From the NCBI GenBank assembly GCA_947361615.1, contig CANAJP010000004.1, positions 8,216 to 72,215 on the forward strand: DNA of 64,000 nucleotides, in the 5' to 3' direction. Origin of the DNA: an uncultured Candidatus Melainabacteria bacterium (GTDB lineage: Bacteria; Cyanobacteriota; Vampirovibrionia; Gastranaerophilales; Gastranaerophilaceae). The translations under genes were made by a program, and so were the position numbers. Positions 26,114 to 59,994 of this stretch are shown one piece after another. Numbering within the stretch: the stretch's first letter is position 1; every line of letters starts with the position of its first letter. A model generated the notes under the pieces. It worked only from the letters and a program-made list of their open reading frames with translations, searched no databases and was not told the origin of the DNA.

Positions 26114-27766
<1,653 letters not shown>

Positions 27767-34485: not shown

Positions 34486-34833
34486 TTACACATTTAACAT
34501 TTTTAAAAAGCTTTTCAATTTTCCTTTGAAGTCATTTCCCTGTGGAATATTTGCGGATTTATAAAATTCTTTATATGAGTTTATGATATTGAATGGCAAA
34601 TCTTCGTCGTTATCGAGGATTTCGGCAATCATCATTAAATAACTGTCCTGCTCTTCTTTATATAAAAGGTCGCGTTTGCGCAAATCTTCATCGGCTTCGA
34701 AATACACTAATGCATGGTAAGAAGCCTGAATGCTTTCGTCCTCAATATCATGCGGGAATTGATTAATCGCTTCGCGCACGCAAATTTTGCCGATTAGAAC
34801 TTCTCTAATTAATTGCGCAACTTTTTTTCTCAT
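34486..34833 (-). CDS. 115-aa acidic soluble protein co-transcribed with the BlaI-family repressor
   Basis: ATGA overlap with the upstream gene. No TM segment and no recognised motif. Confidence 0.55.
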   Translation of the reverse strand: MRKKVAQLIREVLIGKICVREAINQFPHDIEDESIQASYHALVYFEADEDLRKRDLLYKEEQDSYLMMIAEILDNDEDLPFNIINSYKEFYKSANIPQGNDFKGKLKSFLKMLNV

Positions 34834-35171
34834 TTTACTAATAAGTCATATTTAGCTTCAACAAAACGGATAAGATTTGAAGAATTTCCTTCAAAGAAGT
34901 TGTTAATGACTTCGTTTACAGCTTCAAGAGCCATTTCTTCTCTCTGCATAGTTGCTTTGTAGAAGAATTTTTTACCAACTCTGTATCTAACGAGAATGCT
35001 TTTTACGGTTAATCTGTCCATAACCGTCTTTATAGTTGTGTATGCACGCTCTACCCCTTTGCTTGACAGGTAATCAACAACGTCCTGAATTGAAATATCA
35101 TTATCTTCGCCGTTGTTTGTTAAATCCCAAATCGAGTTTAAAATGTCAATTTCTAAAGTTCCGCATGTCAT
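34830..35171 (-). CDS. BlaI/MecI/CopY-family winged-helix repressor
   Basis: LEIDILNSIWDL...ISIQDVVDYL...AYTTIKTVMDRLTVKSILVRYRVGKKFFYKA matches the penicillinase-repressor fold pattern. Confidence 0.8.
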   Translation of the reverse strand: MTCGTLEIDILNSIWDLTNNGEDNDISIQDVVDYLSSKGVERAYTTIKTVMDRLTVKSILVRYRVGKKFFYKATMQREEMALEAVNEVINNFFEGNSSNLIRFVEAKYDLLVK

Positions 35172-35246
35172 AAGTTCTTCCTTCTTCCTATTATAATAAA
35201 GTGTATTACGATTGTAACATATTGGTTTTATTTTTGCAATAGCTGA

Positions 35247-36395
35247 TTAGAACATTTCCAATAGATTTTCTTCTTTTGTTACAAAACTTTTTTTTCTTCT
35301 GGCTTTCTCGTTTTTCTTCTTTGTTTTGTTGGAAACTTTTTTGTAGGCATTATCTATAGAAATTTTAGTTAATGGTGTGCCTTTTTTCTTGTCGAAGAAA
35401 ACGAGCCAGAAATTTCTGTTAATGTTATCAACGGCAAATGAAATGTTTCCAACGATTTTTTCACCGGGTTTAATTTGTTTGAACATGATTTTTGTATCGC
35501 CAAAGATTGATGGTCTGAAAGTTGCGTTGTAGTCGTTGATAAGCGCCATGTCGAGGCCTGAAAGATTTTTGTCAGAATGGTTGGTAATCATGACTGTGAG
35601 TGTGATGGTGTTTGCGACATCAAACGGGTCTTTTTCGTGTTTTATGTTGCTGATAAAAATATCTAAACCCGGATAGAAAAGTTCGTGCTGCATAAGAGCT
35701 TCTTCGCGATAGACCGGAAGTTCCACGTCTGATTTGATTTTGACTTTAATTTCATCTCCAGGGGCGATTAAGACATTGTGCCCTTTTCTAACCAGCGCCA
35801 TGCCTAAACCGTAAGCACCTCCAACGGCAGCGCCTGCTGCGAGAGTGTAGCCTTGAGATGCAATAGCGGCTTCAATTCCTAACAGGTTAAGCGCGACAAA
35901 CCCTCCGACAACGCCGCCTGCGGCAGTGTAGCCGACATCCTGTGCAACGATTTTAGCTGTTTCTACAACGGGATGAAGCTTTGTACTCATGTGGCCCTCG
36001 ATTGGGATTTCACGGCCATCAGGTGTAATCAGATAGTCAAAATCCATTTCAATCCACGCGGAACGTCCTAGGCTTTTAGCTTCACCTGATTCAATAATTG
36101 AGCCGTGCGCGATAGTTCCTTTCGGGATGATAACGCCTTTGTCACCGACAACATCGGTCGTGACTTCGGCGAAAAATTCATCACCCTCAATCGTAAGGTT
36201 TCCGTCGAGTACCTGTGAAACAGTCATGTTGATAACATCTTTGCGCTCTAATTTTTCGACTTCTCCAGTGAAAATTTCTTCTTGACGCGGAATGAAGTTT
36301 TCATTGTATTCAACAGACGCGTCGAATGTTTGCGCCATAACAAGCGGCTGAGCCAATAAAACGGATGAAATGACTATGCCCAAAATCTTCTTCAT
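35247..36395 (-). CDS. secreted protein with a TrbI/VirB10-like beta segment, a glycine-zipper region and a C-terminal Ig-like segment
   Basis: Start set at MKKILGIVISSVLLAQPLVMAQ (signal peptide). VIIPKGTIAHGSIIESG...AWIEMDFDYLITPDGREIPIEG resembles TrbI-family motifs. Gly-zipper AAGGVVGGFVALNLLG...AAGAAVGGAYGLGMA. Confidence 0.5.
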   Translation of the reverse strand: MKKILGIVISSVLLAQPLVMAQTFDASVEYNENFIPRQEEIFTGEVEKLERKDVINMTVSQVLDGNLTIEGDEFFAEVTTDVVGDKGVIIPKGTIAHGSIIESGEAKSLGRSAWIEMDFDYLITPDGREIPIEGHMSTKLHPVVETAKIVAQDVGYTAAGGVVGGFVALNLLGIEAAIASQGYTLAAGAAVGGAYGLGMALVRKGHNVLIAPGDEIKVKIKSDVELPVYREEALMQHELFYPGLDIFISNIKHEKDPFDVANTITLTVMITNHSDKNLSGLDMALINDYNATFRPSIFGDTKIMFKQIKPGEKIVGNISFAVDNINRNFWLVFFDKKKGTPLTKISIDNAYKKVSNKTKKKNEKARRKKSFVTKEENLLEMF

Positions 36396-36467: not shown

Positions 36468-38423
36468 ATGAATATGCAAGTGAAATCGAATATTTCTCAA
36501 ATAGGTTTTAAAGCAATTACCCTCAACAAAGAAGAGGAACGGAGAACGACGGTTTTGTTGAATTCGTTAGGGGAAAATACCGGAAAAGATGAGCTTATTA
36601 AAAGCCAACTTTTTGATGTTTTTGACAAGCATATCCAGAAAGAAGCTGGACTAAAAGTTAAGAGTTGTCATTCACTGCCGGATTTTTTGCAGAAAATCTA
36701 TTTGGCTTTTTTAGAAAAATTAGAAGCAGGAAAAACTGAAAAATTGACATCTACTGCACTTGTTGAATATTTAAACATTATTAAACCGGCTAAGGATGAA
36801 ATTCTGCCAGATTTCGCGTTTGATACAAAGTCTATTCATTCAAAAATCTCAAACAATATGGACTTTACGCTTGAAACTCTTCTCACCGAAGGCGATTTAC
36901 CTGTATATGCAAGTTCGGCAAATCAAGAAGAACGTTTGCCATACCAACAACATTTAAAGAATGTTATAGAAACAAGCAGCTTGAAAGACAAAGAAAAAGA
37001 AGTTTTATTAGAATCCGGAAGCGGGAAAACGTATCGAGAATTGGCAGAAGAATATTTAACCAGTGTTTGTTCAATAAGAGAGAAAATATTTTGTTCTCTT
37101 ATAAAATTGAAATATTCACTGGGCCTCTTGCCGGGAAAATATAAAGAAAATATTGAAACTTCCAGTAAACTTTTGAATATCGACAAGGATGTTTTTGAGC
37201 AAACCGCTTTTAAAAAGCCTCAACTATTCTATCTAACCCCTGAGTTTCTTGTGCAGAACGTCGAAACTACCGCTAAACTTTTGAAACAGAAAAAAGAAGT
37301 TTATATCCAATCTGCGTTAAAACAGCCAACATTATTCTACTTAAAACCAGAACGAATTAATCAAAATGTTGAAGCAACAAGCAAGCTTTTAAACCTTAAA
37401 AAGGATGATTTTATCAAAGCAGCAGTCAAATATCCGTCGTTATTTTATCACAAGCCACAAACAATCAACCATAATGTTGAAACAACGAGTAAACTTTTAA
37501 ACCTTAAAAAAGAAATTTTAGTCAAAGCCGCAGTTAACCAACCGCCATTATTTTACCAAAAACCTGAAACCATTAACCAAAATATAGAAACAACAGGTGA
37601 GATTTTGAACGTTGAAAAAGATGTTTTGGTTCGTGCCGCTCTTAATCGGCCAACTTTATTTTGCCAGAAACCGGAAACTATTAATCAAAACATTGAAAGC
37701 ACGGCGCAACTTCTGAATATCGATAAAGATGTATTTATAAAAGCGGCAATAAAACGCCCTGCCTTATTTGGCCGTAGCCCTGAAACCCTTAATCAAAACA
37801 TAGAAGTCGCAAGCAAACTTTTGAATTTAGAAAAAGAAGTTTTTGTTCAAGCGGCGATTAAGCAACCTACTCTATTTTGTCAGAAGCCTGATACGCTAAA
37901 TCAGAACGTAGAAACAATTAGTAAATTGTTAAATGTTGAAAAGTCTGTATTTGTTCAGGCCGCTCTAAAACAACCTACATTATTCTACCGCGCTCCCGAA
38001 TCTATTAACAGTAATATAGAAACCACAAGTCAGCTTTTGAATACTAAAAAGGATGCTTTTGTTAAATCCGCTCTGATAAAACCGCAGTTGTTTATTTTAA
38101 AGCCTGAAACTATCGTGAAAAAGGTGAAAATTATGCAATATTACGATGAAATACTGGGAAATAAAAATAATAGAAAAAGTGTTCTTCTGTATTCCGACGA
38201 AAAATTATATCATAGAATACTGGATTACCTAGTTACTTCTCAACACAAATTAAAATCATCTATGAGTGAGTTGGCATTAGTATCACTGTTAGAAAAGCAT
38301 GATGGCGCATATAAATTTGAAATCCCTCAAAATTCATTGACACAAGAATTTATAGAATATGCACAAAATTTTTCTCTAAAACATCTCCATAAACAGATAT
38401 TTAACTTTAAAATTAAAATTTAA
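36468..38423 (+). CDS. sigma-70 region-4/LuxR-type HTH protein with nine tandem 36-aa mTERF-like repeats
   Basis: aa 172-216: LKDKEKEVLLESGSGKTYRELAEEYLTSVCSIREKIFCSLIKLK. aa 225-548: 9 repeats of INQN(I/V)ETTSKLLN(L/I)-K(D/E)VF(V/I)KAA(I/L)KQPTLFYQKPET. Confidence 0.7.
   Translation: MNMQVKSNISQIGFKAITLNKEEERRTTVLLNSLGENTGKDELIKSQLFDVFDKHIQKEAGLKVKSCHSLPDFLQKIYLAFLEKLEAGKTEKLTSTALVEYLNIIKPAKDEILPDFAFDTKSIHSKISNNMDFTLETLLTEGDLPVYASSANQEERLPYQQHLKNVIETSSLKDKEKEVLLESGSGKTYRELAEEYLTSVCSIREKIFCSLIKLKYSLGLLPGKYKENIETSSKLLNIDKDVFEQTAFKKPQLFYLTPEFLVQNVETTAKLLKQKKEVYIQSALKQPTLFYLKPERINQNVEATSKLLNLKKDDFIKAAVKYPSLFYHKPQTINHNVETTSKLLNLKKEILVKAAVNQPPLFYQKPETINQNIETTGEILNVEKDVLVRAALNRPTLFCQKPETINQNIESTAQLLNIDKDVFIKAAIKRPALFGRSPETLNQNIEVASKLLNLEKEVFVQAAIKQPTLFCQKPDTLNQNVETISKLLNVEKSVFVQAALKQPTLFYRAPESINSNIETTSQLLNTKKDAFVKSALIKPQLFILKPETIVKKVKIMQYYDEILGNKNNRKSVLLYSDEKLYHRILDYLVTSQHKLKSSMSELALVSLLEKHDGAYKFEIPQNSLTQEFIEYAQNFSLKHLHKQIFNFKIKI
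37140..38114 (+). repeat. 108-bp tandem coding repeats (9 units) inside 36468-38423
   Basis: Period-36-aa protein repeats are visible directly in the translation. Confidence 0.85.
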
Positions 38424-38668
38424 GTATTCTTTTTCGGTATTAATGCCCATAAACCGGCGCCGGTTGCAAGAATTCCGTTTATTAAAATTGAATTTTTTGT
38501 CGGAGATTTGAATACCTGACATTTTCTTCCAGCATAATCGAGTCCTACGCCGAATGCAAACCAGCCTCCTGCTGTTGTTGCTGCATTTTGTAAATTTTGT
38601 CGTTTGTTTATGCGTGGAGTTGTTTTAGGATAAGTTGTATTTATTTTTCCATCAAAAGTTACGGGCAT
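38420..38668 (-). CDS. small membrane protein (82 aa from MPVTF)
   Basis: Two hydrophobic Gly-rich segments. The longer tracked ORF would run through the tRNA-Ser terminator hairpin. Confidence 0.45.
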   Translation of the reverse strand: MPVTFDGKINTTYPKTTPRINKRQNLQNAATTAGGWFAFGVGLDYAGRKCQVFKSPTKNSILINGILATGAGLWALIPKKNT

Positions 38669-38704
38669 TGTGTAAATCCTTGTTTGCTTAGAAGCGCGTT
38701 TTAT

Positions 38705-38731
38705 CAAAAAAGCCACCTTGTTAGGTGGCTT
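38705..38731 (-). terminator. terminator after tRNA-Ser
   Basis: aaaGCCACCtaacaaGGTGGCtttttt on the minus strand. Confidence 0.7.
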
Positions 38732-38735
38732 TAAA

Positions 38736-38825
38736 TGGAGGAGGAGGTGGGATTCGAACCCACGGAACGCGTGAACGTTCGACAGTTTTCAAGACTGCTC
38801 CAATCAACCGCTCTGGCACTCCTCC
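38736..38825 (-). tRNA. tRNA-Ser (TGA), CCA encoded
   Basis: Reverse complement is GGAGGAGTGCCAGAGCGGTTGATTGGAGCAGTCTTGAAAACTGTC...GTGGGTTCGAATCCCACCTCCTCCTCCA. Long variable arm. Confidence 0.88.
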
Positions 38826-39843: not shown

Positions 39844-40083
39844 ATGCAAAATTTGTACTATGAATTTGACAAGATGGTTGGACAGGTGATGGAGGTTAAA
39901 GACCTGAGTTTTACTCTTACAAGTGCGATGAAAGGATGTATCGCAGACTCGGCAGAAGCTTATTCGCTTCTTCCGGCTATGGAAATACTTAGCAATAAAA
40001 CTAATACTCTTTATGAAAAAGCAGAAGAATTTTCAACTAAAATGCTACAACAAGATTTGTGTGCCGACCATGATTCTATGTGA
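39844..40083 (+). CDS. 79-aa acidic helical protein, head-to-head with the RHH regulator
   Basis: GAGGTG RBS before the ATG at 39844. Its 3' end overlaps the convergent porin gene by 39 nt. Confidence 0.5.
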   Translation: MQNLYYEFDKMVGQVMEVKDLSFTLTSAMKGCIADSAEAYSLLPAMEILSNKTNTLYEKAEEFSTKMLQQDLCADHDSM

Positions 40084-41244
40084 GTCGTCGCGGCCCTGAT
40101 TCTGGCAGAAAATGTAGTTCAGGATAAGTTTTAAGCCCTGACCTTTGATAAAATAGTTGATACCTGCAGTGTATTCGCGGCGCAGGTTATGGGAAACATT
40201 TCTATCAGGATCAAATTGGTCAAACCTTGCTACAAGTTGGAGTTTTGGTGTGATTTTGTAGCCGACAGTTGTATAAAAACCGGATGATTGTCTATTGGTA
40301 TAGCCTGCGACACCGTTAGAGCCGTCTGCCTGTGCCCATTCAAAGTTCGCAAAAAATCTTTTGTATTCATAACCTGCGTAGGCGCCGGCTACGAAAAAAT
40401 CACCGCTTCCGTACTGACCGCCGTTGATACCGCCGCCAAGTTTTAATTTACCGTATCTGCCGTCGGTTTTGCCCAGTGGTTTTAGGTTCACCCAGCCTGT
40501 GAATTCAACGCCAGGCATGAATTTTCTGAAATATGTGTCAGAGCTGTAGCCGCCGAAGTCGTATTCTACTAAGTCGTAGTTTCCCTGAACCCTTAAACCG
40601 AATTTACGTACTGTACCGTAGGTTCGTGAAATTTGTGAACGGTTAACGAATGGGAGAGTGTAAGGGCTTTGACCGCCTTCCATACCAATAGGGGGACGGG
40701 AGTTCCCGAACATTACGCGGTGGTGTGGAATTCTGTTGGTCGCTACGTATAAATCCGCAGGAAGATTTTGCCAGAAGGTTCTGTTATGTACAGGGTTGAA
40801 GTTAAACATAAGGCGAAAATCTTCTTTGCCGCCGCGAAATTTACCGTCAATACCGACATTAAAGTGGCCCTCTGAGTAATCGACGGTTGTAGGTTGGTTG
40901 TGCCCCATAGAAACACCAACTTGTGGCAAGATTGAACCCCACAGATGAACGCTTTCAACGGGGCCTTTTTTTATCTTGAAAGTTGTCATTTCTGAAAGCA
41001 GATGATATGGAGTGTCTGTTTGGACGACTTCGGCTTTCAGTATATCGTGAACTTTTTCGGAAAATGTTTTTTCGTGCGGTATCTGGATATCTTCAACGCG
41101 AGGTGCTATTTCCTGAACCTGTTCGACTTCGCTTTCTAAGATTATGTCTTTAAGTTCAACAGGGGCAATTTCTGTTTCTTCGATTGCCTGTGCGGGTATA
41201 AATGATAATAAAATTAGTGTAAATATTAAAAAAATCTTTTTCAC
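40045..41244 (-). CDS. outer-membrane beta-barrel porin-like protein (phosphate-selective porin O/P-like)
   Basis: Signal peptide MKKIFLIFTLILLSFIPAQA. Alternating beta-strand pattern and an ARFDQFDPD segment. Confidence 0.5.
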   Translation of the reverse strand: MKKIFLIFTLILLSFIPAQAIEETEIAPVELKDIILESEVEQVQEIAPRVEDIQIPHEKTFSEKVHDILKAEVVQTDTPYHLLSEMTTFKIKKGPVESVHLWGSILPQVGVSMGHNQPTTVDYSEGHFNVGIDGKFRGGKEDFRLMFNFNPVHNRTFWQNLPADLYVATNRIPHHRVMFGNSRPPIGMEGGQSPYTLPFVNRSQISRTYGTVRKFGLRVQGNYDLVEYDFGGYSSDTYFRKFMPGVEFTGWVNLKPLGKTDGRYGKLKLGGGINGGQYGSGDFFVAGAYAGYEYKRFFANFEWAQADGSNGVAGYTNRQSSGFYTTVGYKITPKLQLVARFDQFDPDRNVSHNLRREYTAGINYFIKGQGLKLILNYIFCQNQGRDDSHRIMVGTQILL

Positions 41245-41268
41245 GGCTAGTTATAACCTTTTAATAAT

Positions 41269-41292
41269 ATTCGCCCCTGAAACGGGGCGAAT
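41269..41292 (-). terminator. terminator after the Hyf-like operon
   Basis: ATTCGCCCC-tgaaac-GGGGCGAAT, a 9-bp stem. Confidence 0.65.
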
Positions 41293-41308
41293 TCTAATCT
41301 AAATTATA

Positions 41309-42040
41309 TTACTTGACACCTAAATAATCAAGTATTCCATTGATTATTGTCAATGGGTGTGCAGGACAGCCCGGAATATATAAATCTACGGGATGTCTTT
41401 CAAAGAATGTTCTGTCGAGTTCTTCAGAGTCTTGAAAAACTCCGCCGGAAATTGCGCACGCACCTACTGCTATTACGATTCTTGGTTCTGGTGTTGAAAG
41501 GAATGTATCTTCCAGAGCTTTTGCCATATTTTTAGTAACAGGGCCTGTGATTACAACGCCATCAGCGTGGCGAGGGGAAGCTACAAAGTCAATACCGTAT
41601 CTGCCGATATCAAAGTTCGCGTTAGAGCAAGCGTTCAATTCCATTTCGCAGGAGTTGCAGCCGCCGGCTGAAACTTGGCGTAATTTCAATGATTGACCGA
41701 AAACTTTTGTAATTTCTTCTTTTGCGACAATCGGGTTGATTTCACCGTTAACGATTAAATCTTTGCGTTTTGTAGCGCTGTATTTGTGGTTACGGGTGAA
41801 TGTGATTGCACCGTTTGAAACACGCGCGCATTCGCCGCAGAAAGTACATTTGCCAAGGTCAATTTTTTTATCATTGGTAATTGCGCAGGTTGGGCAAGCC
41901 TTTTGACATTCTTCAAGGTTTGTTAGTTTTGCCTCGTCGATTTCCGGAATTCCGCGAAATCTTGGTTTAATCTCGCGGCCTCGTATGTCTTTTATTATTT
42001 GATTTTTTTGTAAGTGTACTGTTTTTAATGTTTTAAACAT
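41309..42040 (-). CDS. group-4 hydrogenase small-subunit/NuoB-like protein with a fused N-terminal ferredoxin-like segment
   Basis: N-terminal CQKACPTC...CTFCGEC. C-terminal GGCNSCEMEL, VASPRHADGVVITGPV, GACAISGG and IPGCPAHP. Confidence 0.8.
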   Translation of the reverse strand: MFKTLKTVHLQKNQIIKDIRGREIKPRFRGIPEIDEAKLTNLEECQKACPTCAITNDKKIDLGKCTFCGECARVSNGAITFTRNHKYSATKRKDLIVNGEINPIVAKEEITKVFGQSLKLRQVSAGGCNSCEMELNACSNANFDIGRYGIDFVASPRHADGVVITGPVTKNMAKALEDTFLSTPEPRIVIAVGACAISGGVFQDSEELDRTFFERHPVDLYIPGCPAHPLTIINGILDYLGVK

Positions 42041-42055
42041 GGTTGTTTCCTTTTA

Positions 42056-43489
42056 TTATAAGTCAAATCCACAATATGAAAGGTCAAAACTTTTGTTGCA
42101 GACAGGGAAGTCTGAAATCTGGTTGTTTCTGACAGCCAGCGCTAGGCCGAACCAGTTGTGGAATGATGGGTCTTTAATTTTGTATTGTTCGATAGCACCG
42201 GATTTATCGGTTGTGATTACGTGTTGAATTTCGCCTCTCCAGCCCTCTGTTAATGTAATACACATACTGTTTGGTGCGTATTCTTTTTTGATTTCAGGGG
42301 TTTCAAGGGTGCCGTCGAGTTCGTCAAGCATTTCAAGAATCAAGTCTTTTGATTGTTTGATTTCCAAAACTCTTTGATATGCTCTTGCCCAAACGTCACC
42401 ATTTTTTGCCGATACAGGTGTAAAATCTTTGTAGTCGTTATAAATACGGCTGTCAACGATTACGCCTGAAGCTCTTGCTGCAGGGCCGACCATACCGATT
42501 TCTTCTGCTTTTTTAGTAGAAACCATACCGGTATTTTCAAGTCTTGAGAGAACTGAAGCGTTTGCAAACATTGCGTCGCACATTTCTGTAACGCGGTTGT
42601 CAACTTCTTCTAACATTGAAACGACCTTGCCTTTGAGTTCTTCGTCAATATCAAAGTTTACGCCGCCTATTCTCATTAAACCTTTACCAAAACGGCTGCC
42701 TGAGATTTCAAGGAGTGTGTTAATAACTAAAGTTCTTGTAACACCCAGAACGTTTGCGGCCATAAGGTATGCAATATCGCCTGCAATTGCGCCGATGTCA
42801 CCGATATGAATTGCCATTCTTTCCATTTCGAGGGCAATTTTACGGATTGTTTGTGCACGGTTGCAAACTTTCATTCCGGAAAGCGCTTCCAGACCGCGGG
42901 CAAAAGTCATTGAGTGACCGATTGTTGTATCGCCGCAGAGTGATTCTGCAAGCCAGATATTCGGGTTCTTTTTAAGCATTTTTTCAACGCCTCGGTGCTG
43001 CCAGCCAAGTTGGATTTCAAGGTGCATTACGCGTTCGCCCTGACATAAAAATCTGAAGTGACCAGGTTCGATAATACCTGCGTGAACAGGTCCTACTGCA
43101 ACTTCGTGAGATTGTAAATCGTCTGATTTTAAGAATTCATAACCATCATTTACTCTAACAGGTTTCAAGAACGGGTGGCCTGCAGGGCGAATTCCGTAAT
43201 TTTCGTAAATTTCACGTTCAAACATGTGAACTGACGGACGTCTGAGGGTCAATGAAGGATATTCGTTTCCGACGATTGTTCCTACTATATGCAATTCTGC
43301 GTTTTTGTCGTCCGCTATAACTGCATATAAATTATTTCTATATTCTTCTTCCTTGTTGATGAACAAATTTGCTACGCGGTAGTGTGTGTCGCTGACCATA
43401 AGCATGAATTCGTTGAATTCAACAACAGGGATGTCTGATTTTTTTATTACTTCGTTATTTTTAAATTTTAGTGTCTTTGTCATTACCAT
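42056..43489 (-). CDS. group-4 [NiFe]-hydrogenase large-subunit homolog (NuoC-NuoD fusion type) lacking the Ni-Fe cysteine ligands
   Basis: GPVHAGIIEPGHFRF and LGWQHRGVEK motifs. The L1 motif reads ESLCGDTTIGHS (canonical R-x-C-G-x-C-x-x-x-H). The C-terminus reads SFDLSYCGFDL (canonical D-P-C-x-x-C). Confidence 0.8.
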   Translation of the reverse strand: MVMTKTLKFKNNEVIKKSDIPVVEFNEFMLMVSDTHYRVANLFINKEEEYRNNLYAVIADDKNAELHIVGTIVGNEYPSLTLRRPSVHMFEREIYENYGIRPAGHPFLKPVRVNDGYEFLKSDDLQSHEVAVGPVHAGIIEPGHFRFLCQGERVMHLEIQLGWQHRGVEKMLKKNPNIWLAESLCGDTTIGHSMTFARGLEALSGMKVCNRAQTIRKIALEMERMAIHIGDIGAIAGDIAYLMAANVLGVTRTLVINTLLEISGSRFGKGLMRIGGVNFDIDEELKGKVVSMLEEVDNRVTEMCDAMFANASVLSRLENTGMVSTKKAEEIGMVGPAARASGVIVDSRIYNDYKDFTPVSAKNGDVWARAYQRVLEIKQSKDLILEMLDELDGTLETPEIKKEYAPNSMCITLTEGWRGEIQHVITTDKSGAIEQYKIKDPSFHNWFGLALAVRNNQISDFPVCNKSFDLSYCGFDL

Positions 43490-44739
43490 ATTATACCACC
43501 TGCGTTTTTAATTAATTCAAATAAGCCGTTTGGCATATAAATACCAAGTACGATTGCCGTTACAATCAGGAATATTTGAGGTAAATAGTTGTTAAACGGT
43601 AATTTTACCGGCTGTGTTTCGGTGTTAGCGTCCTTGCTGTAGTCCATTTTTAAAACTGTACTCATAATACCGAAGAGAACAATTGTTAATAGAAGGACAA
43701 ATACGATGCACAAAATGTATTGCTGGTTGAGTAAGAATTGTTTAATGATTAAAAATTCTGACAGGAACAGCGGTGATGGCGGAATCGCAAGGATTAACAT
43801 TGCGCCCAGTAACCATAACCATGATGTGCATTTGTTTTTGTTTACAAGGTCTTTAACTTCTGCAACTTCTTTTGTGTTGTAAAGGTGCAGGATGTTGCCG
43901 GAGGTCAAGAATAATGAACTCTTAATCAATGAGTGAGAAAGCAGGTGAATTAATGCCCCGATTGTACCAAGGCTTCCGAGCGCAATACCTATTGCGATGA
44001 TACCCATATTTTCTACTGATGAATAAGCGAGCATTCTTTTGTAGTTCTTAATTTTGTATACATAAACTGCAGTGATGAAGATTGAAAGAAGTCCCATCGT
44101 AAGCATTAAAACTTGAACAGTGTGGCCTAAACCTGCAAGGCTCATAAGTTTTACGAGTCTTAGGATAACGAGAACCGCAGAGTTTAATAATGTTGCTGAT
44201 AACATTGCTGAAACCGGTGACGGAGCTTCTGCGTGCGCGTCAGGCAGCCAGCTGTGAACAGGTGCAAAACCCGCTTTTGTACCGAAACCGATTAAAATAA
44301 ATATAAATGATAATTTTAACCAGAATGGATTGATTGCTGTTGCGTTTGCGTACAAATCGTTGTAGAAAAGTGAATTTACGCTTCCTGAACCGATAAGTAA
44401 CAGGATTATACCTACAAACGCAAGTGAAATACCGATTGAGCAGAGGAATGTGTATTTCCAGGTCGCTTCAAGTGAGTTTTTAGACTTGTGAAGCATAATC
44501 AAATATGCACTTGTCAATGTAGTGGCTTCGACAAATACCCAGGTTAGACCTAAGTGGTTACTGAGTAGTGCGCCGACCATTGAAAGGAAAAACAGGAAGA
44601 ATATTGAATAATATCTCAAATTTTCCTTTGCACTTTTGCAGTAGTTGAACCCTTGATAAATCATTACGCAAACGGTTACAACCACGAGTGCAATTAAAAA
44701 TAATAAATTTAAACTGTCTAATATAAAATAATTATTCAT
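43483..44739 (-). CDS. antiporter-like membrane subunit (HyfF/NuoN-like)
   Basis: WLPDAHAEAPSPVSAMLSA motif; polytopic. Confidence 0.8.
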   Translation of the reverse strand: MNNYFILDSLNLLFLIALVVVTVCVMIYQGFNYCKSAKENLRYYSIFFLFFLSMVGALLSNHLGLTWVFVEATTLTSAYLIMLHKSKNSLEATWKYTFLCSIGISLAFVGIILLLIGSGSVNSLFYNDLYANATAINPFWLKLSFIFILIGFGTKAGFAPVHSWLPDAHAEAPSPVSAMLSATLLNSAVLVILRLVKLMSLAGLGHTVQVLMLTMGLLSIFITAVYVYKIKNYKRMLAYSSVENMGIIAIGIALGSLGTIGALIHLLSHSLIKSSLFLTSGNILHLYNTKEVAEVKDLVNKNKCTSWLWLLGAMLILAIPPSPLFLSEFLIIKQFLLNQQYILCIVFVLLLTIVLFGIMSTVLKMDYSKDANTETQPVKLPFNNYLPQIFLIVTAIVLGIYMPNGLFELIKNAGGIIW

Positions 44740-45442
44740 CTTTTGCCATCTCGCTATCTTTTAAATTACAAAGTTGTGAAACATCAGGGTTGCCGTAGAT
44801 ATGGCCGATTTCGCCAATCAACAGCCCCAGAATGAATACTGCAATAAATACGTCAAGTAATACCCCGAGGTTTACAATCAACGGCATTTCTTTTGCGATT
44901 GAAAGTGAAAGCAGGAATATACCGTTTTCCAACATCGCAAAACCGATTATGTGTGTTAAGAGTTTCTTTTTAATAGCGATGAATACAAACGCTGTTATGA
45001 TTGTTGAAACTGAAACGCCGAAGTATAGGCTTGAGATGTTTTGTAAAATATCAGCCTGACTGCTTGCGATGATGAAACCTGCAAACAGGATAATTGTTGA
45101 TATTACAAGTGTATAAAAGTTAGGGAATTGCGGGTTGTTATCCCTTTTGATGTTGTTTTTTTCAGCAACTCTATCCAAAACGTTAGGTATAATAAGCGCT
45201 TTGACAACGAAAGTTTCCAGAATTAGGAAAGTTGCGCCGACGAGTGCATCCACGTGTGTGAACAATGAGGTTATCGCTGCCCAGATGCTTGAGGTATCAA
45301 GTTCGTTGATGTGTGCAAATATTGTTATGATACAAAGGATTATACCTTGAAGTCTTAACATATTTGTCTGTGCTGCGATACGGCTTGAGGTTGCCATATA
45401 TAACATCGAAATCCCGAATATAACAATTAATAAGTTAATCAT
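44732..45442 (-). CDS. HyfE-like small membrane subunit
   Basis: 236-aa polytopic protein in the HyfE position of a hyf-type operon. Confidence 0.6.
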   Translation of the reverse strand: MINLLIVIFGISMLYMATSSRIAAQTNMLRLQGIILCIITIFAHINELDTSSIWAAITSLFTHVDALVGATFLILETFVVKALIIPNVLDRVAEKNNIKRDNNPQFPNFYTLVISTIILFAGFIIASSQADILQNISSLYFGVSVSTIITAFVFIAIKKKLLTHIIGFAMLENGIFLLSLSIAKEMPLIVNLGVLLDVFIAVFILGLLIGEIGHIYGNPDVSQLCNLKDSEMAKDE

Positions 45443-45443
45443 A

Positions 45444-46349
45444 TTACAAATGTCCTCCGTGCATAATTAATAGAACAAGTGCCATTACAATTAACGCTGC
45501 AACTATTAATGTAAAAGTATATTCTATTATGTGAGTTAATCTGATTCTAGCGCATAAAGATTCGATTATGCCGATAAGAACCGCGATAGCGAGAGCTACA
45601 AGTACAGAGCCGATGAAGCTTAACGGAGCGATTGTCATTGTGATGATTGTTGTGAACAACATCATTTTCAACGCTGAACCGTATTGGATAAACGCTAAAT
45701 CAACACCTGAGTTGTCAAGAACCATAACTTCGTGAATCATTGTTAACTCGAGGTGAGTTTTAGGGTCGTCAATCGGAACCCTTGAGCCTTCGATTAAAAT
45801 TATGAGGAATAATGCGCCGACTGTTGCAAGCGCGATTAAAATCATAATGTCATTGTTTGACCAGAAAAGGTGCGCTAGTGATGCAAATGAGTAAACACCG
45901 TTCAGTGCGCAGATTGATGAAATTATGATGAAGAATGCCGGTTCGATTAGAGATGTGTAGCTTACTTCTCTAGAAGCGCCCATTCCCTCAAAGCTTGAAC
46001 CTGTATCCATAGCCGCAACGACTGATACGAATTTACCTAAAGCAAGCAGGTATGAGAAAAGAATAAAATCTCCCTCAAAGTGGATTACGGTAACAAGCAT
46101 TGCCGCAACGATAAGGCAGGCAAGGTTGATAACCGGCGCAACTCTGAAGATTCCTGTTGCTGTTTCACTGATAACTTCGCCCTTGTTCATAAGTCTGTTG
46201 AAGTCAAAGTAAGGCTGGAATATGCTTGCGCCTTGTTTTCCGGCGAATTTTGCTTTTACTTTATTAATTATACCAATGAATAAAAATGGTAGCGATAAAA
46301 GTAATATCATTTTTAATATTGGAAAAATAATCATTGCTAGAATTATCAT
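45444..46349 (-). CDS. HycD/HyfC/NuoH-like membrane subunit
   Basis: EGSRVPIDDPKTHLELTMIHEVMVLDNSG motif. Start set at MIILAMII (TAATG junction with the upstream gene). Confidence 0.8.
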   Translation of the reverse strand: MIILAMIIFPILKMILLLSLPFLFIGIINKVKAKFAGKQGASIFQPYFDFNRLMNKGEVISETATGIFRVAPVINLACLIVAAMLVTVIHFEGDFILFSYLLALGKFVSVVAAMDTGSSFEGMGASREVSYTSLIEPAFFIIISSICALNGVYSFASLAHLFWSNNDIMILIALATVGALFLIILIEGSRVPIDDPKTHLELTMIHEVMVLDNSGVDLAFIQYGSALKMMLFTTIITMTIAPLSFIGSVLVALAIAVLIGIIESLCARIRLTHIIEYTFTLIVAALIVMALVLLIMHGGHL

Positions 46350-48304
46350 TATATTTTCCCTCCTAAAACTAAGCATATTGCGATGATTAAAGCAATGACG
46401 CCGTACCATAAGTATCTTTGAGTGTTACCGCTTTGAATCCAGTAGAATTTAGACAGTAAGTTTTCGTCAAATTTTACGAGCGGATTAATGATGTAGTATT
46501 CAAAGATATCATATATTTTAGATTTGAAAGAAGTTTTTTCAGGGAACAAGTCCTTGATTGGCTTGAATTCCATAACTCTTACGTAGAATGGGTTTAGGAA
46601 GCCCAGAAACGGTCTTGTGAAAGAAGTTGAAGTATATTGAACCTTCGCCGTTCCTTTATCGTAACCGCAGCCCCATGTGTTTCTGACAGTAACGGTTTTT
46701 CCTGAAAGACAAATTTTTCTGACTAAAAGCAATACGCAAATTGTTATTACTAATGTAATGTTGAAGAATGAAATCACAGTAAGGATTTCGACAGGGTAAA
46801 TGAACGGTACGAGTTCAGAAGTTGCGCCGCCGATGAGCAGTATTGAATACTGCGGGAATAAACCGATTAATGATAAAATCACAACCAGCAATACCATCGG
46901 TGCAACCATTGAGAGCGGAACATCAGATTTAACGTGTTCAGCATATTCAGTTCTCGGAGAACCTAAGAAAATTGTGCTGTAAGCGCTTGTAAAAGCCACC
47001 ATCGCGGTTGCACCGACAAACGCTAAACCTGCCATCGCAAGAATCATTACAGGAATTAATAAATAATTAGGAGTGTTGAAAGAGTTCAAAAATCCGTAGT
47101 AGATTAAAAATTCACTGATGAAACCGTTGAACGGAGGTAACGCACAGAGCGCCATTGAACCGATAAGGAAACAGAATGCAGTTTTTGGCATAACTTTAGC
47201 CAATCCGCCAAGTCTTTCCATATCTTTTGTATGAGTTTTATTGTAAACCGCGCCTGCCGCAAAGAACATAAGCGGTTTGAAGATTGCGTGGTTAATAATA
47301 TGCATAAAGCAGCCAAGGAAGCCAAGAGTTTTGAGGCCTACGTTGTGGTACGCAACGCCTAAAATTCCAAGTCCTAAAGCGAGAGTTATGATACCAATGT
47401 TTTCGATTGAAGAATACGCGAGCATTTTTTTGAAATCTCTTTGACCTACCGCGTAAAGAATTCCGAGCAATGCACTGATAAGTCCGATGGCAAGTATTGC
47501 ATAACCTATTGTTGCAGAAGGTTTGCCAAGTAATTGTGTCATTCTGAGAATTCCGTAAATCCCTGTTTTAATCATAACGCCTGACATTAAAGCTGAAATG
47601 TGGCTTGGAGCAACAGGGTGAGCTTTTGGAAGCCATGTGTGAATCGGTACGAGGCCTGCTTTGATACCGAATCCGATAAACATTAAGGTATAAATTAATG
47701 GAGTAACCTGACCGTTGAAGTCAAAGAACCATATACTTCCGGTTTTGATGTTCAAAAGAACGAAACCTGTTATTAAAAATAAAACCCCGATGTGCATAGT
47801 TACCAAGTAACGCATCGCGGTTTTTCTAACTCCTTGTTCGTCTGCATCGAAAAGCATTAATAGGAAAGAGCTGAAACTCATAATTTCCCAGGCGATTAAG
47901 AATGCAAATACATTTTGTGATAATACGACTAAAATCATTGAAACGACGAAAATGTTAAAACAGAAGTAGTGAGAATTAACGCTTTTACCAGCTTCAATGT
48001 ATTTAGCGAGGTATCCTTTGGAGTAAATCATAGCGAGTAGTGAAACTACCGCAATAATAGTAATGAAGAACGCTGACAATCCGTCGAGTGATAAAACAAC
48101 ATTAACCAGAGTGTTGCCGAACTCGAACATAACGTCTTCGTTAAAGCCCTGGCTGGTGAAACCGCCCAGAGTTCCGCCGAGGGCTAAGAGTGTGGCAATA
48201 GAGTTCAAGAAAATCAAATAGTTAGCTTTTTGGTTTTCTTTGAATAGATATTGCGTTGCCGCACCGAATAAATAAATAATTAGGGCTAGTACAATTAGTT
48301 TCAT
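46349..48304 (-). CDS. antiporter-like membrane subunit (HyfB/NuoL-like)
   Basis: WLPKAHPVAPSHISALMSG motif. Start set at MKLIVLALIIYL. Confidence 0.8.
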   Translation of the reverse strand: MKLIVLALIIYLFGAATQYLFKENQKANYLIFLNSIATLLALGGTLGGFTSQGFNEDVMFEFGNTLVNVVLSLDGLSAFFITIIAVVSLLAMIYSKGYLAKYIEAGKSVNSHYFCFNIFVVSMILVVLSQNVFAFLIAWEIMSFSSFLLMLFDADEQGVRKTAMRYLVTMHIGVLFLITGFVLLNIKTGSIWFFDFNGQVTPLIYTLMFIGFGIKAGLVPIHTWLPKAHPVAPSHISALMSGVMIKTGIYGILRMTQLLGKPSATIGYAILAIGLISALLGILYAVGQRDFKKMLAYSSIENIGIITLALGLGILGVAYHNVGLKTLGFLGCFMHIINHAIFKPLMFFAAGAVYNKTHTKDMERLGGLAKVMPKTAFCFLIGSMALCALPPFNGFISEFLIYYGFLNSFNTPNYLLIPVMILAMAGLAFVGATAMVAFTSAYSTIFLGSPRTEYAEHVKSDVPLSMVAPMVLLVVILSLIGLFPQYSILLIGGATSELVPFIYPVEILTVISFFNITLVITICVLLLVRKICLSGKTVTVRNTWGCGYDKGTAKVQYTSTSFTRPFLGFLNPFYVRVMEFKPIKDLFPEKTSFKSKIYDIFEYYIINPLVKFDENLLSKFYWIQSGNTQRYLWYGVIALIIAICLVLGGKI

Positions 48305-48509
48305 ATTTTCTAATATTCCTATCTCTCTTGTTTCAACATCAAATAATACTCCGTAAAGTATAGATTTCAAGCGGAAATTAGAAAACGGGTTCATATTTTT
48401 AACAAAAGGCGAAATGCCTAGTGTAAGAATAGTTTCCGTTGGTTTTATGTGCGTTGCCATCCCGTACTTGGTCGACTGAGTCGACGGCTATAATTGAACC
48501 CACATTTTA

Positions 48510-57024: not shown

Positions 57025-59994
57025 ATGACAGATATAGACAAATTTGATATAGATTTTTCATTTAAAAAGAACGATGTTGATGAACTTTTCTTCAACCTGA
57101 GCGAAAACCCGAACGGTTTTAAAAACAAGGATTTCCGCTATACGTTGAGTTTGGTTTATCAGATTATAGAAGAGGAATTTGAGGGCGTATTTTTAAGCCC
57201 GAACCCTCCGGCTAGAAACACAGATTTCTATTTGGTGAATAATTCAGGCAAATTGTCTTTCTTTGTTACTCCTACAAACAATTTTGATTATTACTTAAAA
57301 TCAAAAGGTTCATTGTTCCGCCTTCGTTCGTCTGTAATGGGCAACAAAGTCGGCTATGCAATGGATTTTGATATGGTAATGGATTATTTCGGCGGGTTCG
57401 GAAACATCGTCGGAATGGAAGCTATGACCGAAACTTTCACCTATTTGAACAAATTAACTTATTTTGTTCTTAAACTTGTTGAAAAGTTGTACTTCATTCC
57501 GACCGTTAAAACCCGCGGAAGTATGTTCAGAATTGTTTATGAACCAATTATCGCAAACCAAACTCTTGCGCGCATAATTAACCAGTTTGAAGAAAATCTT
57601 CCTGAAAATTTATTTATTTCAGGCGAAAAACCTGAAAACTTTGTTCGTGACTTTATTTATAACTATTTGAACTACGTTATTTATAAATTTTTAGGAATTA
57701 AAGCATACAAGTTTAAGGATATCAAGTCCGGAACTTATATGATTAAAGACCTTGAACAACGCATAATGATGCGCAGTCATGATTTGGCCGAAAGCTTTAA
57801 CCAATGGTTTGATGAGCTTTATCTTGGTAAATACGACATTATTCCGTTCTTTAAGGTTACAAAACTTGAAGACGAGCTTTTCCAACTTAAAGTTCATATC
57901 AAAGACCGTAAGACTGGTGAAACGGTTCTTATAGATAAACTTTATACGGATGATGAAGTTTTTGGTGCGGCGTCTTCAGATATTGCAAAAATCGTTGAAA
58001 AACAGCTTAATTACGCAATTCGTTATATGCCGGAACTCGAAAATCTTTTTGAAGATGAGGAAAAACTTGCGCTGGATTTGAATTTGACAGAAGTCTATAA
58101 AATTATTACGCAGACGGCATATTACTTACAAAAGGCGCAAATCGAGGTTGTTCTGCCTGATGAACTCGTGAATGTTGTAATTCCGCGCGCTTCAATTAAC
58201 GCAAAGGTTAAAGCCCAACGCTCTCAAGACCTTGCGGATATCTTCAATACTCCGTCATCTTCAAAAATCTCGCTTGACGATATTCTTGATTTTTCATACG
58301 AAATCGCGCTCGGTAACGAGAAAATTTCTCTTGAAGAGTTCGCTGAGTTAACCAAAAATTCGAACGGATTGATTAAGTATAAGAATAAATATATTCTTAT
58401 CGACAAAGAAGAAACCTCAAAAATCTTTGAACAGGTCGCTAAATCCGACATTAAAACAATGTCTAGAATGGAACTTATCCACGCATCTGTTTCCGGTCAA
58501 TTGAAACAATACGACTTCGACTATGACGAGGCCTTTGCAAACGTAATCAAAGACTTTAACAAACCTGTTGATGTTACTCCTCCTGCTGAACTTCAAGGTA
58601 CATTAAGACCTTATCAGGAAACAGGTTTGAAATGGTTGTGGACGAATATTTCCAAAGGTTTCGGGGTTTGTATGGCCGACGATATGGGGCTTGGTAAAAC
58701 TATCCAAATTATCAGCTTAATTCTTAAAATGAAAGAGGAAAAGAAACTTGATAAACCAGTTCTTGTTATCTGTCCGACAACCCTTATCGGTAACTGGATG
58801 AAAGAAATTAAGATGTTTGCGCCTTCTCTTGACGCCGTAATTTACCACGGGGCAGAAAGACAACTCGACGTTAAACACGATATTATTCTTACAACTTACG
58901 CGATTATGAGAATTGACGTTGAAGAGTTTAAGAAAAATCAGTGGGGTATGATTATTGTCGATGAAGCACAAAACATCAAAAACCCTGATACCGCACAAAC
59001 TCTTGCAATTAAACTTCTCAAATCCGATATAAAAGTTGCTATGACCGGTACCCCTGTTGAAAACAGATTGATTGAATTGTGGAGTATCTTCGATTTTATC
59101 AACCCGGGATATCTCGGAACTCTACGTGAATTCCAAAAAAGTTATGCAATTCCTATCGAACGCTTTAAAGAAACTTCGCGTGCAACTAAACTTAAGCTTT
59201 CAGTTTCGCCGTTTGTTCTAAGACGTCTGAAAACTGATAAGAAAGTTATTTCTGACCTTCCGGATAAGATTGTCTTGAACGATTATTGTTATCTCAACAA
59301 ATCTCAAGCGGTGCTTTATGAAAAAACTCTTGACGAAATGATGGCGAAAATCAGCGAGTTTTCAGGCATTAATCGTCGTGGTAATATCTTCAAACTTATC
59401 ACTGCGCTTAAACAGATTTGTAACCACCCTTATCAGTTCTTGAAAAGTGGTGAAATGAGCCGCGAAATGTCAGGAAAACTTGATAAGTGTATGTCCTTAA
59501 TCGAAACGATTATTGAACGTGGTGAAAAAACACTTATTTTTACACAATATCGTGAGATGGGTGACATTTTGTATAAAGTTATAGAAGACGAATTTAATAT
59601 GACACCGCTATTTTTCCATGGTTCATTGACAGTTGGACAGCGTGAGGAAATTATTAAACGCTTCCAGGAAAACGATGACGATAAGATTATGATTTTGTCC
59701 CTGAAAGCGGGCGGAACAGGTTTGAACCTAACGAGTGCCACGAACGTAATCCATTACGATTTATGGTGGAACCCTGCGGTAGAAGATCAGGCGACCGACC
59801 GTACTTACCGTATCGGTCAGGATAAAAACGTAATGGTTCACCGGCTTATTACCTTGGGAACTTTTGAAGAAAAAATCGATGAAATGTTGAAAAGTAAGAA
59901 AGAACTTGCGGATTTGGCTGTATTCGAAGGCGAAAAAATTATTACAGAACTTTCGGATTCAGAAATCTACGAAATCTTTTCACTTACGGTGTAG
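57025..59994 (+). CDS. SNF2-family helicase with a ~500-aa N-terminal accessory region (YwqA-like architecture)
   Basis: DDMGLGKT (motif I), DEAQNIKN (II), TGTPVENR, and the helicase-C motifs LKAGGTGLNLT...QATDRTYRIGQ. Confidence 0.88.
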   Translation: MTDIDKFDIDFSFKKNDVDELFFNLSENPNGFKNKDFRYTLSLVYQIIEEEFEGVFLSPNPPARNTDFYLVNNSGKLSFFVTPTNNFDYYLKSKGSLFRLRSSVMGNKVGYAMDFDMVMDYFGGFGNIVGMEAMTETFTYLNKLTYFVLKLVEKLYFIPTVKTRGSMFRIVYEPIIANQTLARIINQFEENLPENLFISGEKPENFVRDFIYNYLNYVIYKFLGIKAYKFKDIKSGTYMIKDLEQRIMMRSHDLAESFNQWFDELYLGKYDIIPFFKVTKLEDELFQLKVHIKDRKTGETVLIDKLYTDDEVFGAASSDIAKIVEKQLNYAIRYMPELENLFEDEEKLALDLNLTEVYKIITQTAYYLQKAQIEVVLPDELVNVVIPRASINAKVKAQRSQDLADIFNTPSSSKISLDDILDFSYEIALGNEKISLEEFAELTKNSNGLIKYKNKYILIDKEETSKIFEQVAKSDIKTMSRMELIHASVSGQLKQYDFDYDEAFANVIKDFNKPVDVTPPAELQGTLRPYQETGLKWLWTNISKGFGVCMADDMGLGKTIQIISLILKMKEEKKLDKPVLVICPTTLIGNWMKEIKMFAPSLDAVIYHGAERQLDVKHDIILTTYAIMRIDVEEFKKNQWGMIIVDEAQNIKNPDTAQTLAIKLLKSDIKVAMTGTPVENRLIELWSIFDFINPGYLGTLREFQKSYAIPIERFKETSRATKLKLSVSPFVLRRLKTDKKVISDLPDKIVLNDYCYLNKSQAVLYEKTLDEMMAKISEFSGINRRGNIFKLITALKQICNHPYQFLKSGEMSREMSGKLDKCMSLIETIIERGEKTLIFTQYREMGDILYKVIEDEFNMTPLFFHGSLTVGQREEIIKRFQENDDDKIMILSLKAGGTGLNLTSATNVIHYDLWWNPAVEDQATDRTYRIGQDKNVMVHRLITLGTFEEKIDEMLKSKKELADLAVFEGEKIITELSDSEIYEIFSLTV

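Follow-up and report, generated by a model that had tools for sequence, protein, structure and literature searches.

Proteins of the mTERF family are still regarded as exclusive to eukaryotes in reviews and most of the literature, and a 2026 survey called them absent from prokaryotes (PMC12977773). Bacterial counterparts were nevertheless described as the pTERFs, prokaryotic, mTERF-like tandem-repeat proteins that bind DNA and come from metagenome-assembled genomes (MAGs) of gut and rumen (Nucleic Acids Res 2024;52:10464, PMC11417379), whose members bear 3–11 units and were collected in a screen that took periods of 15–35 aa only. pTERF1 (MBQ3414883.1) binds ACTNNNAGTC with a dissociation constant (Kd) of 1.87 nM, pTERF2 binds another motif, and both bind specific double-stranded DNA (dsDNA) at nanomolar Kd (PMC11417379). 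The pTERF1 site contains an ACT/AGT inverted repeat, which would be of the type recognized by dimeric helix-turn-helix (HTH) proteins. According to their authors, pTERFs exhibit no obvious sequence similarity to mTERFs and no conserved proline, and most members come from Bacillota; the text of that paper makes no mention of an HTH, LuxR, GerE or sigma module, or of a C-terminal domain (PMC11417379). Here, we analyzed a gene located at positions 36468–38423 of a 64,000-nucleotide stretch (the window) of contig CANAJP010000004.1 from an uncultured Melainabacteria bacterium, which encodes a 651-aa protein joining a sigma-like module to an array of mTERF repeats and an orphan C-terminal domain. 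Since prokaryotic mTERF-like DNA binders have already been published (PMC11417379), the protein is not categorically new; what sets it apart is its fusion to a sigma-like module, together with an orphan domain at the C-terminus, an mTERF signal that is strong at the Pfam level and the Melainabacteria host.

The three-part architecture, in which a sigma-like module is followed by mTERF repeats and by a family-specific C-terminal domain, and the homology of these parts are assigned with high confidence. The gene is laid out as follows:

36468..38423, + strand: whole gene, whose 651-aa product combines a sigma-like module, mTERF repeats and an orphan tail, from the open reading frame (ORF) listing
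36525..36782, + strand: sigma2-like helical domain, aa 20–105, from structure search, hhalign, TIGR02937 and phrog_1740
36783..36923, + strand: poorly ordered linker, aa 106–152, from a predicted local distance difference test (pLDDT) of 47–67 and the co-linear alignment with SigA
36924..37118, + strand: HTH of the sigma4 / GerE-LuxR class, aa 153–217, from the family profile against PDB and the Pfam scores of relatives
37140..38111, + strand: nine tandem 36-aa mTERF-type repeats, aa 225–548, from periodicity, unit table and model
37290..37698, + strand: part of the array detected by Tandem Repeats Finder, with a period of 108 bp, 3.8 copies and 72% matches
38112..38420, + strand: conserved orphan C-terminal domain, aa 549–651, from family alignment and model

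The true start is likely Met3 (nt 36474), because homologs align from this residue, which is invariant in the family alignments. A metagenomic cluster representative (P0001) is 100% identical to the window protein; exact searches for contigs encoding either of them returned none. The AlphaFold2 full-length model, built on the family alignment, reached a mean pLDDT of 88. Promoter and terminator scans of the gene detected no intrinsic terminator and returned nothing beyond weak promoter-like sites.

The original prediction for this gene, made from the sequence alone, had described the C-terminal 325 residues as nine near-perfect 36-aa tandem repeats with a 108-bp DNA period. The count and the period were borne out, as self-identity reached 56% at a shift of 36 aa against 3–8% at shifts of 30–41, and the nine units, all in register, yielded the consensus INQNIETTSKLLNxxKDVFVxAAxKxPxLFYxKPET, in agreement with the one proposed. 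"Near-perfect" overstated the similarity among the units, whose pairwise identity within the window array averages 55% in protein (range 42–69%) and 63% in DNA, with Tandem Repeats Finder recovering the 3.8 copies listed above. The array does not extend to the C-terminus either, but spans aa 225–548 and gives way to a conserved domain of 103 aa without repeats. The family unit consensus, derived from 232 units of 69 relatives, was INKNIEKSAKLLGISKEEFIKAALKQPQLFYQKPET, with Asn4 (95%), Pro27 (93%) and Pro34 (90%) close to fixation and some 15 variable positions (2–3, 6–8, 10, 13, 15–18, 26, 28 and 31–32). The net charge of the array is +11. In the AlphaFold2 model, each unit folds into a long, a medium and a short helix of 14, 10 and 4 residues, with pLDDT above 94 throughout the array; this is the layout that defines an mTERF unit, in which ~30–36 aa form two α-helices and a third, short one of the 3-10-like type, and the units stack as a superhelix.

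Profile and structure searches converged on the mTERF class that the original prediction had named. The Pfam mTERF model (PF02536, gathering cutoff 23.1 bits) was matched by 14 of the 26 aligned relatives. Relatives scored 42–116 bits on it, including 116.4, 82, 79.9, 75.9, 60.5 and 54.5 bits, and those with the latter scores match the window protein at E-values from 1e-62 to 1e-155. When compared with PDB sequences, the family profile retrieved mS93 (5.8e-9), MTERF3 (1.1e-6) and MTERF1 (~4e-4). The comparison with MTERF1 and other mTERF structures, which had been proposed as a check, gave the same answer: the 11 best PDB matches of the model in Foldseek were all mTERFs, with target-normalized template modeling (TM) scores of 0.55–0.67, led by MTERF1 (E 2.1e-5, TM 0.55–0.61) and MTERF3 (TM 0.67, root-mean-square deviation 3.6) and followed by mS93 and MTERF4. 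The published mTERF signature consists of a proline accompanied by hydrophobic residues at +3, +10 and +17 (Roberti et al. 2009, via PMC11417379). Counting from Pro27, conserved at 93%, the family units exhibit F/L/I at +3 in 98% and I/L at +10 in 93% of cases, while +17 is occupied mainly by S/T/A, with the hydrophobic residues shifted to Pro+14 and Pro+21. We conclude from family profiles and modeling that these are true mTERF repeats, which are predicted to form a superhelical solenoid. The accompanying remark that this motif is rare in bacteria was fair, although it missed the pTERF family (PMC11417379).

The 103-aa C-terminal domain, which is not part of the repeats, is kept across the family and carries, in this order, the motifs KKxKIxxYY, FEIP and GKxIFxFKIK, so that the proteins end in ...YxFEIP...GKxIFxFKIK. 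It was modeled as an α/β fold with two strands (pLDDT 77–94), and neither Pfam nor the PDB sequences contained anything matching it.

On the evidence of alignments and models, we assign the N-terminal ~220 aa to a divergent sigma2–linker–sigma4 module related to those of extracytoplasmic function (ECF) sigma factors, and refer to it as sigma-like (ECF-type layout). The sigma2-like domain was predicted as four helices (pLDDT 83–93) and contains a region-2.2-like motif, PDFLQKIYLAFLEKLE, with the near-invariant residues D72 and Q75. The family consensus of this motif, ED-x-LQ-xx-YL-x-FFE, in which D72 is at least 90% conserved, fits the D-x-x-Q-E/K-x-F/Y-L pattern of the core-binding helix of region 2.2, and the window protein retains both D72 and Q75. 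The linker lies where ECF sigmas have their sigma3.2-like linker, and regions 3.2–4 of SigA align co-linearly with residues 105–214 of the query. A separate model of aa 1–222 (pLDDT 80) retrieved sigma70-family factors as all of its top 50 PDB matches in Foldseek, including SigA, sigmaE (probability 1.0), SigH, SigB, AlgU, SigK, sigma32, CnrH and SigW; as the alignments span 195–335 columns, both domains are covered. In hhalign, the N-terminal profile aligned with Escherichia coli sigmaE at an E-value of 6.5e-5 over 130 co-linear columns, beginning in region 2.1/2.2 and extending to region 4.2, with VPDVVQEAFIKAY of sigmaE opposite the family motif ED-x-LQ-xx-YL-x-FFE. The sigma70-ECF superfamily model TIGR02937 matched 17 of 22 N-terminal sequences; the alignments in relatives start at profile positions 6–27, and in several of them a single stretch covers positions 6–163 of 165 at 31–38 bits (E 1e-9 to 1e-7). 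The phage profile phrog_1740 ("RNA polymerase sigma factor") aligned to aa 37–218 of the window protein at 1.3e-3 and to the relative P0037 at 4.4e-10, and the high-probability matches in a viral structure library were phage sigma factors. The original suggestion that the first ~215 aa are sigma- or ECF-like is therefore supported by five independent lines, namely sigma-only structural neighbors in PDB, hhalign, TIGR02937, phrog_1740 and the viral structure library, all of them at values below curated cutoffs. The phrog_1740 profile is unusually long (567 positions), and only its first ~216 positions are used in the alignment with the N-terminal module, from which it follows that some phage sigmas may also bear long C-terminal extensions.

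The HTH had been placed at aa 172–216 in the original prediction, and the string quoted for it lies at aa 175–215. Its assignment to the sigma4/GerE class holds for the family: the family profile retrieved GerE (1.7e-5), DesR and RcsB from PDB, in this order, and SigA at 2.4e-4 over ~110 residues of regions 3.2–4, while individual relatives exceed the Pfam cutoffs for Sigma70_r4_2 (P0037, 41.3 bits; cutoff 25.7), Sigma70_r4 (P0290, 35.0 bits, and P0044, 30.3 bits; cutoff 24.1) and GerE (39.8 bits).

Several observations weigh against reading the protein as a sigma-type factor with a DNA-binding mTERF array. The window protein alone matched neither PF02536 nor the Pfam Sigma70 and GerE models, even at E ≤ 10, and its searches against Pfam, NCBIfam and PDB sequences returned noise only. 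Among the sigma results, the structural matches were weak (E ≥ 2.8e-3), with TM scores of ~0.3 because the two domains differ in orientation; the hhalign probability for sigmaE was just 64%; and the best TIGR02937 score was 38.2 bits, every score falling below the curated cutoff of 42.9 bits, with the window protein alone aligning at 0.029 and in its sigma4 part only. Sigma70_r2 was not found in the window protein, in 26 relatives (among the matches listed) or in 10 stand-alone short relatives. The equivalent of region 2.3/2.4, responsible for −10 recognition and melting, has the consensus T-xxx-L-xxx-LN-xx-KP, a segment aligned with low confidence, and lacks a recognizable aromatic/basic signature. 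Moreover, the window protein has a Lys at position 215, where the recognition helix carries a near-invariant Gln, and for many mTERFs of eukaryotes the ligand is RNA, not DNA. Because of the absence of Sigma70_r2, the sub-cutoff scores, the weak E-values, the missing region 2.3/2.4 signature and K215, we refrain from classifying the protein among the sigma factors. The single-sequence scans, on the other hand, were discounted as a verdict, since family profiles and structure are decisive. Taken naively, the Pfam check proposed for the original prediction would seem to refute it, because the window protein alone misses the mTERF, Sigma70 and GerE models; its relatives, however, pass those for mTERF, Sigma70_r4, Sigma70_r4_2 and GerE.

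A homolog search with the window protein retrieved 53 relatives of 25–49% identity, all of them from metagenomes or MAGs, and a word-indexed profile search left this set of proteins unchanged in comparison with the single-sequence search. When the N-terminal profile was run exhaustively in HMMER, the matches amounted to 74 clusters (at 50% identity) at E ≤ 1e-30 and 184 at E ≤ 1e-10. All three modules are present in 72 of the 87 compared family proteins of at least 500 aa. Besides this dominant arrangement, the sigma-like module occurs as stand-alone proteins of ~215 aa, in combination with beta-helix-like repeats, or followed directly by the orphan C-terminal domain, the repeats being absent, and other members have internally duplicated repeat and C-terminal modules (relatives with variant architectures include P0265, P0276/P0329, P0328 and P0228/P0259/P0260/P0252). 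An HD-domain protein of 1487 aa was also found to carry the first ~107 aa of the sigma-like module. In 98 relatives, as in the window protein, the repeats have a period of 36 aa; sub-variants measure 39 or 41 aa, a group with 35 aa is not clearly discernible, and the number of units differs between homologs. The variation in repeat number among strains that had been suggested as a check was not seen, as close relatives of the window protein are alike in length (651, 651 and 649 aa).

Two paralogs of 884 and 1098 aa, which follow each other head-to-tail on a single contig (L007, 5342–11297) with 4 bp between them, indicate local duplication and diversification. On a related contig (L005), the copy of the protein is 30% identical, compared with 70% for GT2 and 62% for PRTase among the shared neighbors, and we therefore consider the gene to evolve fast. 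Across the compared loci, we found no conserved neighbor, operon partner or adjacent anti-sigma gene, and no neighborhood of ribosomal or RNA-processing genes; the ~100-aa ORFs adjoining the gene at three loci are mutually unrelated. No relatives were found in viral contigs, the viral structure library held no mTERF-like fold, and the PADLOC scan for defense systems gave no match.

Taken as a whole, the explanation that we put forward, tentatively and at slightly less than an even chance, is a cytoplasmic sequence-specific nucleic-acid-binding transcription factor whose sigma-like module docks polymerase while the array binds DNA. The sigma-like module would dock the RNA polymerase core through the region-2.2-like helix bearing D72 and Q75, and sigma4 would supply the HTH. 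The mildly basic array would wrap adjacent dsDNA, as in MTERF1 and pTERF1/2, and would be the source of much of the target specificity, which changes in unit number and at variable positions could retune among fast-evolving paralogs. Of these components, the role as a DNA-binding transcription factor is reasonably probable by analogy, given the net charge of +11 and the nanomolar dsDNA binding of pTERFs (PMC11417379). That the protein is a true sigma factor forming a holoenzyme is more doubtful, though still a serious candidate. The lack of a nearby anti-sigma gene is reminiscent of ECF groups regulated through a fused C-terminal extension. A bolder version, in which these are true sigmas with promoter choice largely set by the evolvable ("programmable") array and in which Melainabacteria, as sister group of cyanobacteria and with repeats of Pfam-significant similarity to eukaryotic mTERFs, could mark the bacterial stock for organellar mTERFs, seems unlikely.

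The main rival, which we regard as somewhat unlikely, is a one-component regulator of the LuxR/GerE type that never acts as a sigma subunit. Here the HTH, probably as a dimer, and the array would together occupy an operator, and the protein would serve as repressor, activator or MTERF1-like polar roadblock or terminator, the sigma2-like domain being a relic kept for folding or dimerization. The HTH itself speaks for this alternative, as GerE, DesR and RcsB (E ~1e-5) outrank SigA and Pfam GerE is matched by 10 of 26 members, and so do the missing Sigma70_r2 match and the TIGR02937 scores, all of which are sub-threshold. pTERF1, moreover, binds its inverted repeat ACTNNNAGTC unaided, a parallel that would extend to an HTH by inference (PMC11417379). 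Against it stand the co-linearity of the N-terminal module with sigma models from sigma2 through sigma4, its exclusively sigma-type structural neighbors and the conserved region-2.2-like D/Q motif. No receiver, ligand-binding or autoinducer-binding domain was detected in the protein, whose HTH sits mid-protein behind the sigma2-like domain.

It is considerably less likely that the array is a regulatory extension, exerting intramolecular sigma control or sensing a ligand or partner as in ECF41, ECF42 and ECF56, and does not bind nucleic acids at all. TPR-type helical-repeat extensions are known among ECF sigmas, no anti-sigma gene lies nearby, and the N-terminal module elsewhere carries other C-terminal extensions or none. 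To our knowledge, however, every characterized mTERF binds DNA or RNA; the array is net basic (+11), and its unit number and surface positions vary as a recognition code would. Regulatory C-terminal extensions of ECF sigmas are well documented in the literature (PMC8999054, PMC3426412, PMC7826278), and prokaryotic pTERFs bind dsDNA at nanomolar affinity (PMC11417379). We also consider it improbable that the protein is an RNA-binding factor for ribosome biogenesis or RNA maturation, in the manner of MTERF4, mS93 or plant mTERF4 and mTERF9. Among PDB sequences, the family profile indeed matches the mitoribosomal mS93 best (5.8e-9), and MTERF4–ribosome assembly intermediates appear among the structural matches; yet the repeats are joined to an HTH/sigma module of the DNA type, it is unusual for ribosome factors to evolve fast, to have paralogs and to vary in repeat number, the neighborhoods are devoid of ribosomal and RNA-processing genes, and pTERFs bind dsDNA (PMC11417379). 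Finally, a generic α-solenoid (HEAT, TPR, Sel1 or PPR-like) resembling mTERFs by convergence, for which the lack of a Pfam mTERF match in the window protein alone and the designed helical toroids among the weaker structural matches might be cited, is effectively excluded by relatives scoring up to 116 bits on Pfam mTERF (5x the cutoff), by sequence matches of the profile to three solved mTERF proteins, by the mTERF identity of the 11 best structural matches and by the absence of any HEAT, TPR, Sel1 or PPR match in the 26 family members.

The window, with a guanine–cytosine content of 36.8%, also encodes GroEL, RecJ, MetRS, a porin, a group-4 hydrogenase cluster and tRNAs. Divergently transcribed from the gene under study, a pair on the reverse strand (34830–36395) consists of a 113-aa BlaI/MecI-type Penicillinase_R repressor and an adjoining protein of 382 aa, which has an apparent signal peptide but matches nothing in Pfam or PADLOC; such a repressor would usually be paired with a BlaR1-type sensor protease. 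At the other end, a 98-aa ORF with a GTG start overlaps the stop codon of the gene (38420–38825 region, reverse strand) and is followed by tRNA-Ser(UGA) at 38736–38825. This ORF may be spurious, as no family match was obtained for it and the similarly placed ORFs of ~100 aa at two other loci (L002 and L004) bear no relation to it. Further downstream, the reverse strand at 40045–48460 encodes a phosphate-porin-like outer-membrane protein and then a group-4 [NiFe] hydrogenase / Hyf-like membrane complex with NuoB-, NuoD- and HyfB-like subunits, which is consistent with a fermentative diderm host. A 989-aa SNF2-family helicase of the SCO1167/SCO6262 family, with a weaker likeness to the anti-phage helicases ZorD and DrmD, is encoded on the forward strand at 57025–59994. 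Among species-representative genomes, a single-protein scan recovered one locus of the family (L001), labeled Muribaculaceae. The GroEL of the window (26114–27754) is 99% identical to a MAG protein labeled "Fusobacterium sp.", 90% to one labeled "Candidatus Gastranaerophilaceae" and 88% to one labeled "Heliobacteriaceae". Given these conflicting labels and that of L001, at least some of these public MAG bins appear to be mislabeled. For the host, "Fusobacterium sp." was rejected, since the named relatives disagree and the guanine–cytosine content of 36.8% together with 90% GroEL identity to Gastranaerophilaceae, a family of Candidatus Melainabacteria within the Cyanobacteriota/Melainabacteria group, better suits Melainabacteria as the probable host. 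The cyanobacterial sister lineage considered in the original prediction is therefore plausible.

The family contradicts the eukaryote-only view of mTERFs, with Pfam scores that far exceed the threshold and are stronger than claimed for pTERF. The fusion suggests a division of labor in which DNA is recognized by the array and RNA polymerase is engaged by the sigma-like module. Should the sigma step be true, promoter specificity would be built in a new way, and engineered transcription would gain an attractive scaffold; if it is false, an HTH joined to a TALE-like solenoid would still be an undescribed architecture from the poorly studied gut Melainabacteria. Should pTERF1 carry an HTH as well, the motif specificity reported for pTERF1 and pTERF2 may be owed partly to it. 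Our literature search returned no paper combining mTERF with ECF sigmas or C-terminal extensions, and pTERF appeared only in PMC11417379.

Among known systems, TALE, RipTAL and BurrH proteins share with the window family a tandem superhelix of ~33–36-aa units, a conserved scaffold with few variable positions and a varying number of units. Their repeat fold and sequence are unrelated to those found here, the window family gives no sign of a one-repeat-one-base code, and its variability is spread across ~15 unit positions, unlike the two-residue repeat-variable diresidue of TALEs. The likeness to the ECF (group 4) sigmas ECF41, ECF42 and ECF56 lies in the minimal sigma2–linker–sigma4 arrangement followed by a long C-terminal extension; as in ECF sigmas with such extensions, no anti-sigma gene is adjacent, and the module is co-linear with TIGR02937 and sigmaE. 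Unlike ECF sigmas, the window family stays below the curated cutoffs and has no Sigma70_r2 match, and its extension belongs to a nucleic-acid-binding repeat class, whereas ECF41, ECF42 and ECF56 bear SnoaL or TPR-type sensor extensions.

With the eukaryotic mTERFs (MTERF1–4, plant mTERFs and mS93), the family has in common units of two helices plus a short helix, the conserved proline and the superhelix, and similarity is significant in both profile and structure. Those proteins are nuclear-encoded, organellar and built of degenerate, interspersed repeats, whereas the window array is bacterial and strictly tandem, with 36-aa units that are 55% identical; in addition, its array is flanked by a sigma-like module and an orphan C-terminal domain and does not keep the hydrophobic residue at Pro+17. 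The pTERFs resemble the window family in being bacterial and metagenome-only, in their head-to-tail mTERF-like three-helix units (nine here, 3–11 in pTERF), in the confidently predicted MTERF1-like solenoid and in a repeat arrangement that differs among homologs. The window family differs from them in a period that is overwhelmingly 36 aa (35 in pTERF1, by its identifier), in scores of up to 116 bits on Pfam mTERF and a Pro27 conserved at 93%, neither of which fits pTERF as described, and in the origin of the window from Melainabacteria rather than Bacillota, to which most pTERFs belong. Neither MBQ3414883.1 nor the name "Clostridia bacterium" occurred among 18 family clusters. Compared by description, the proteins presented here belong either to the pTERFs as published or to a family that is sister to them.

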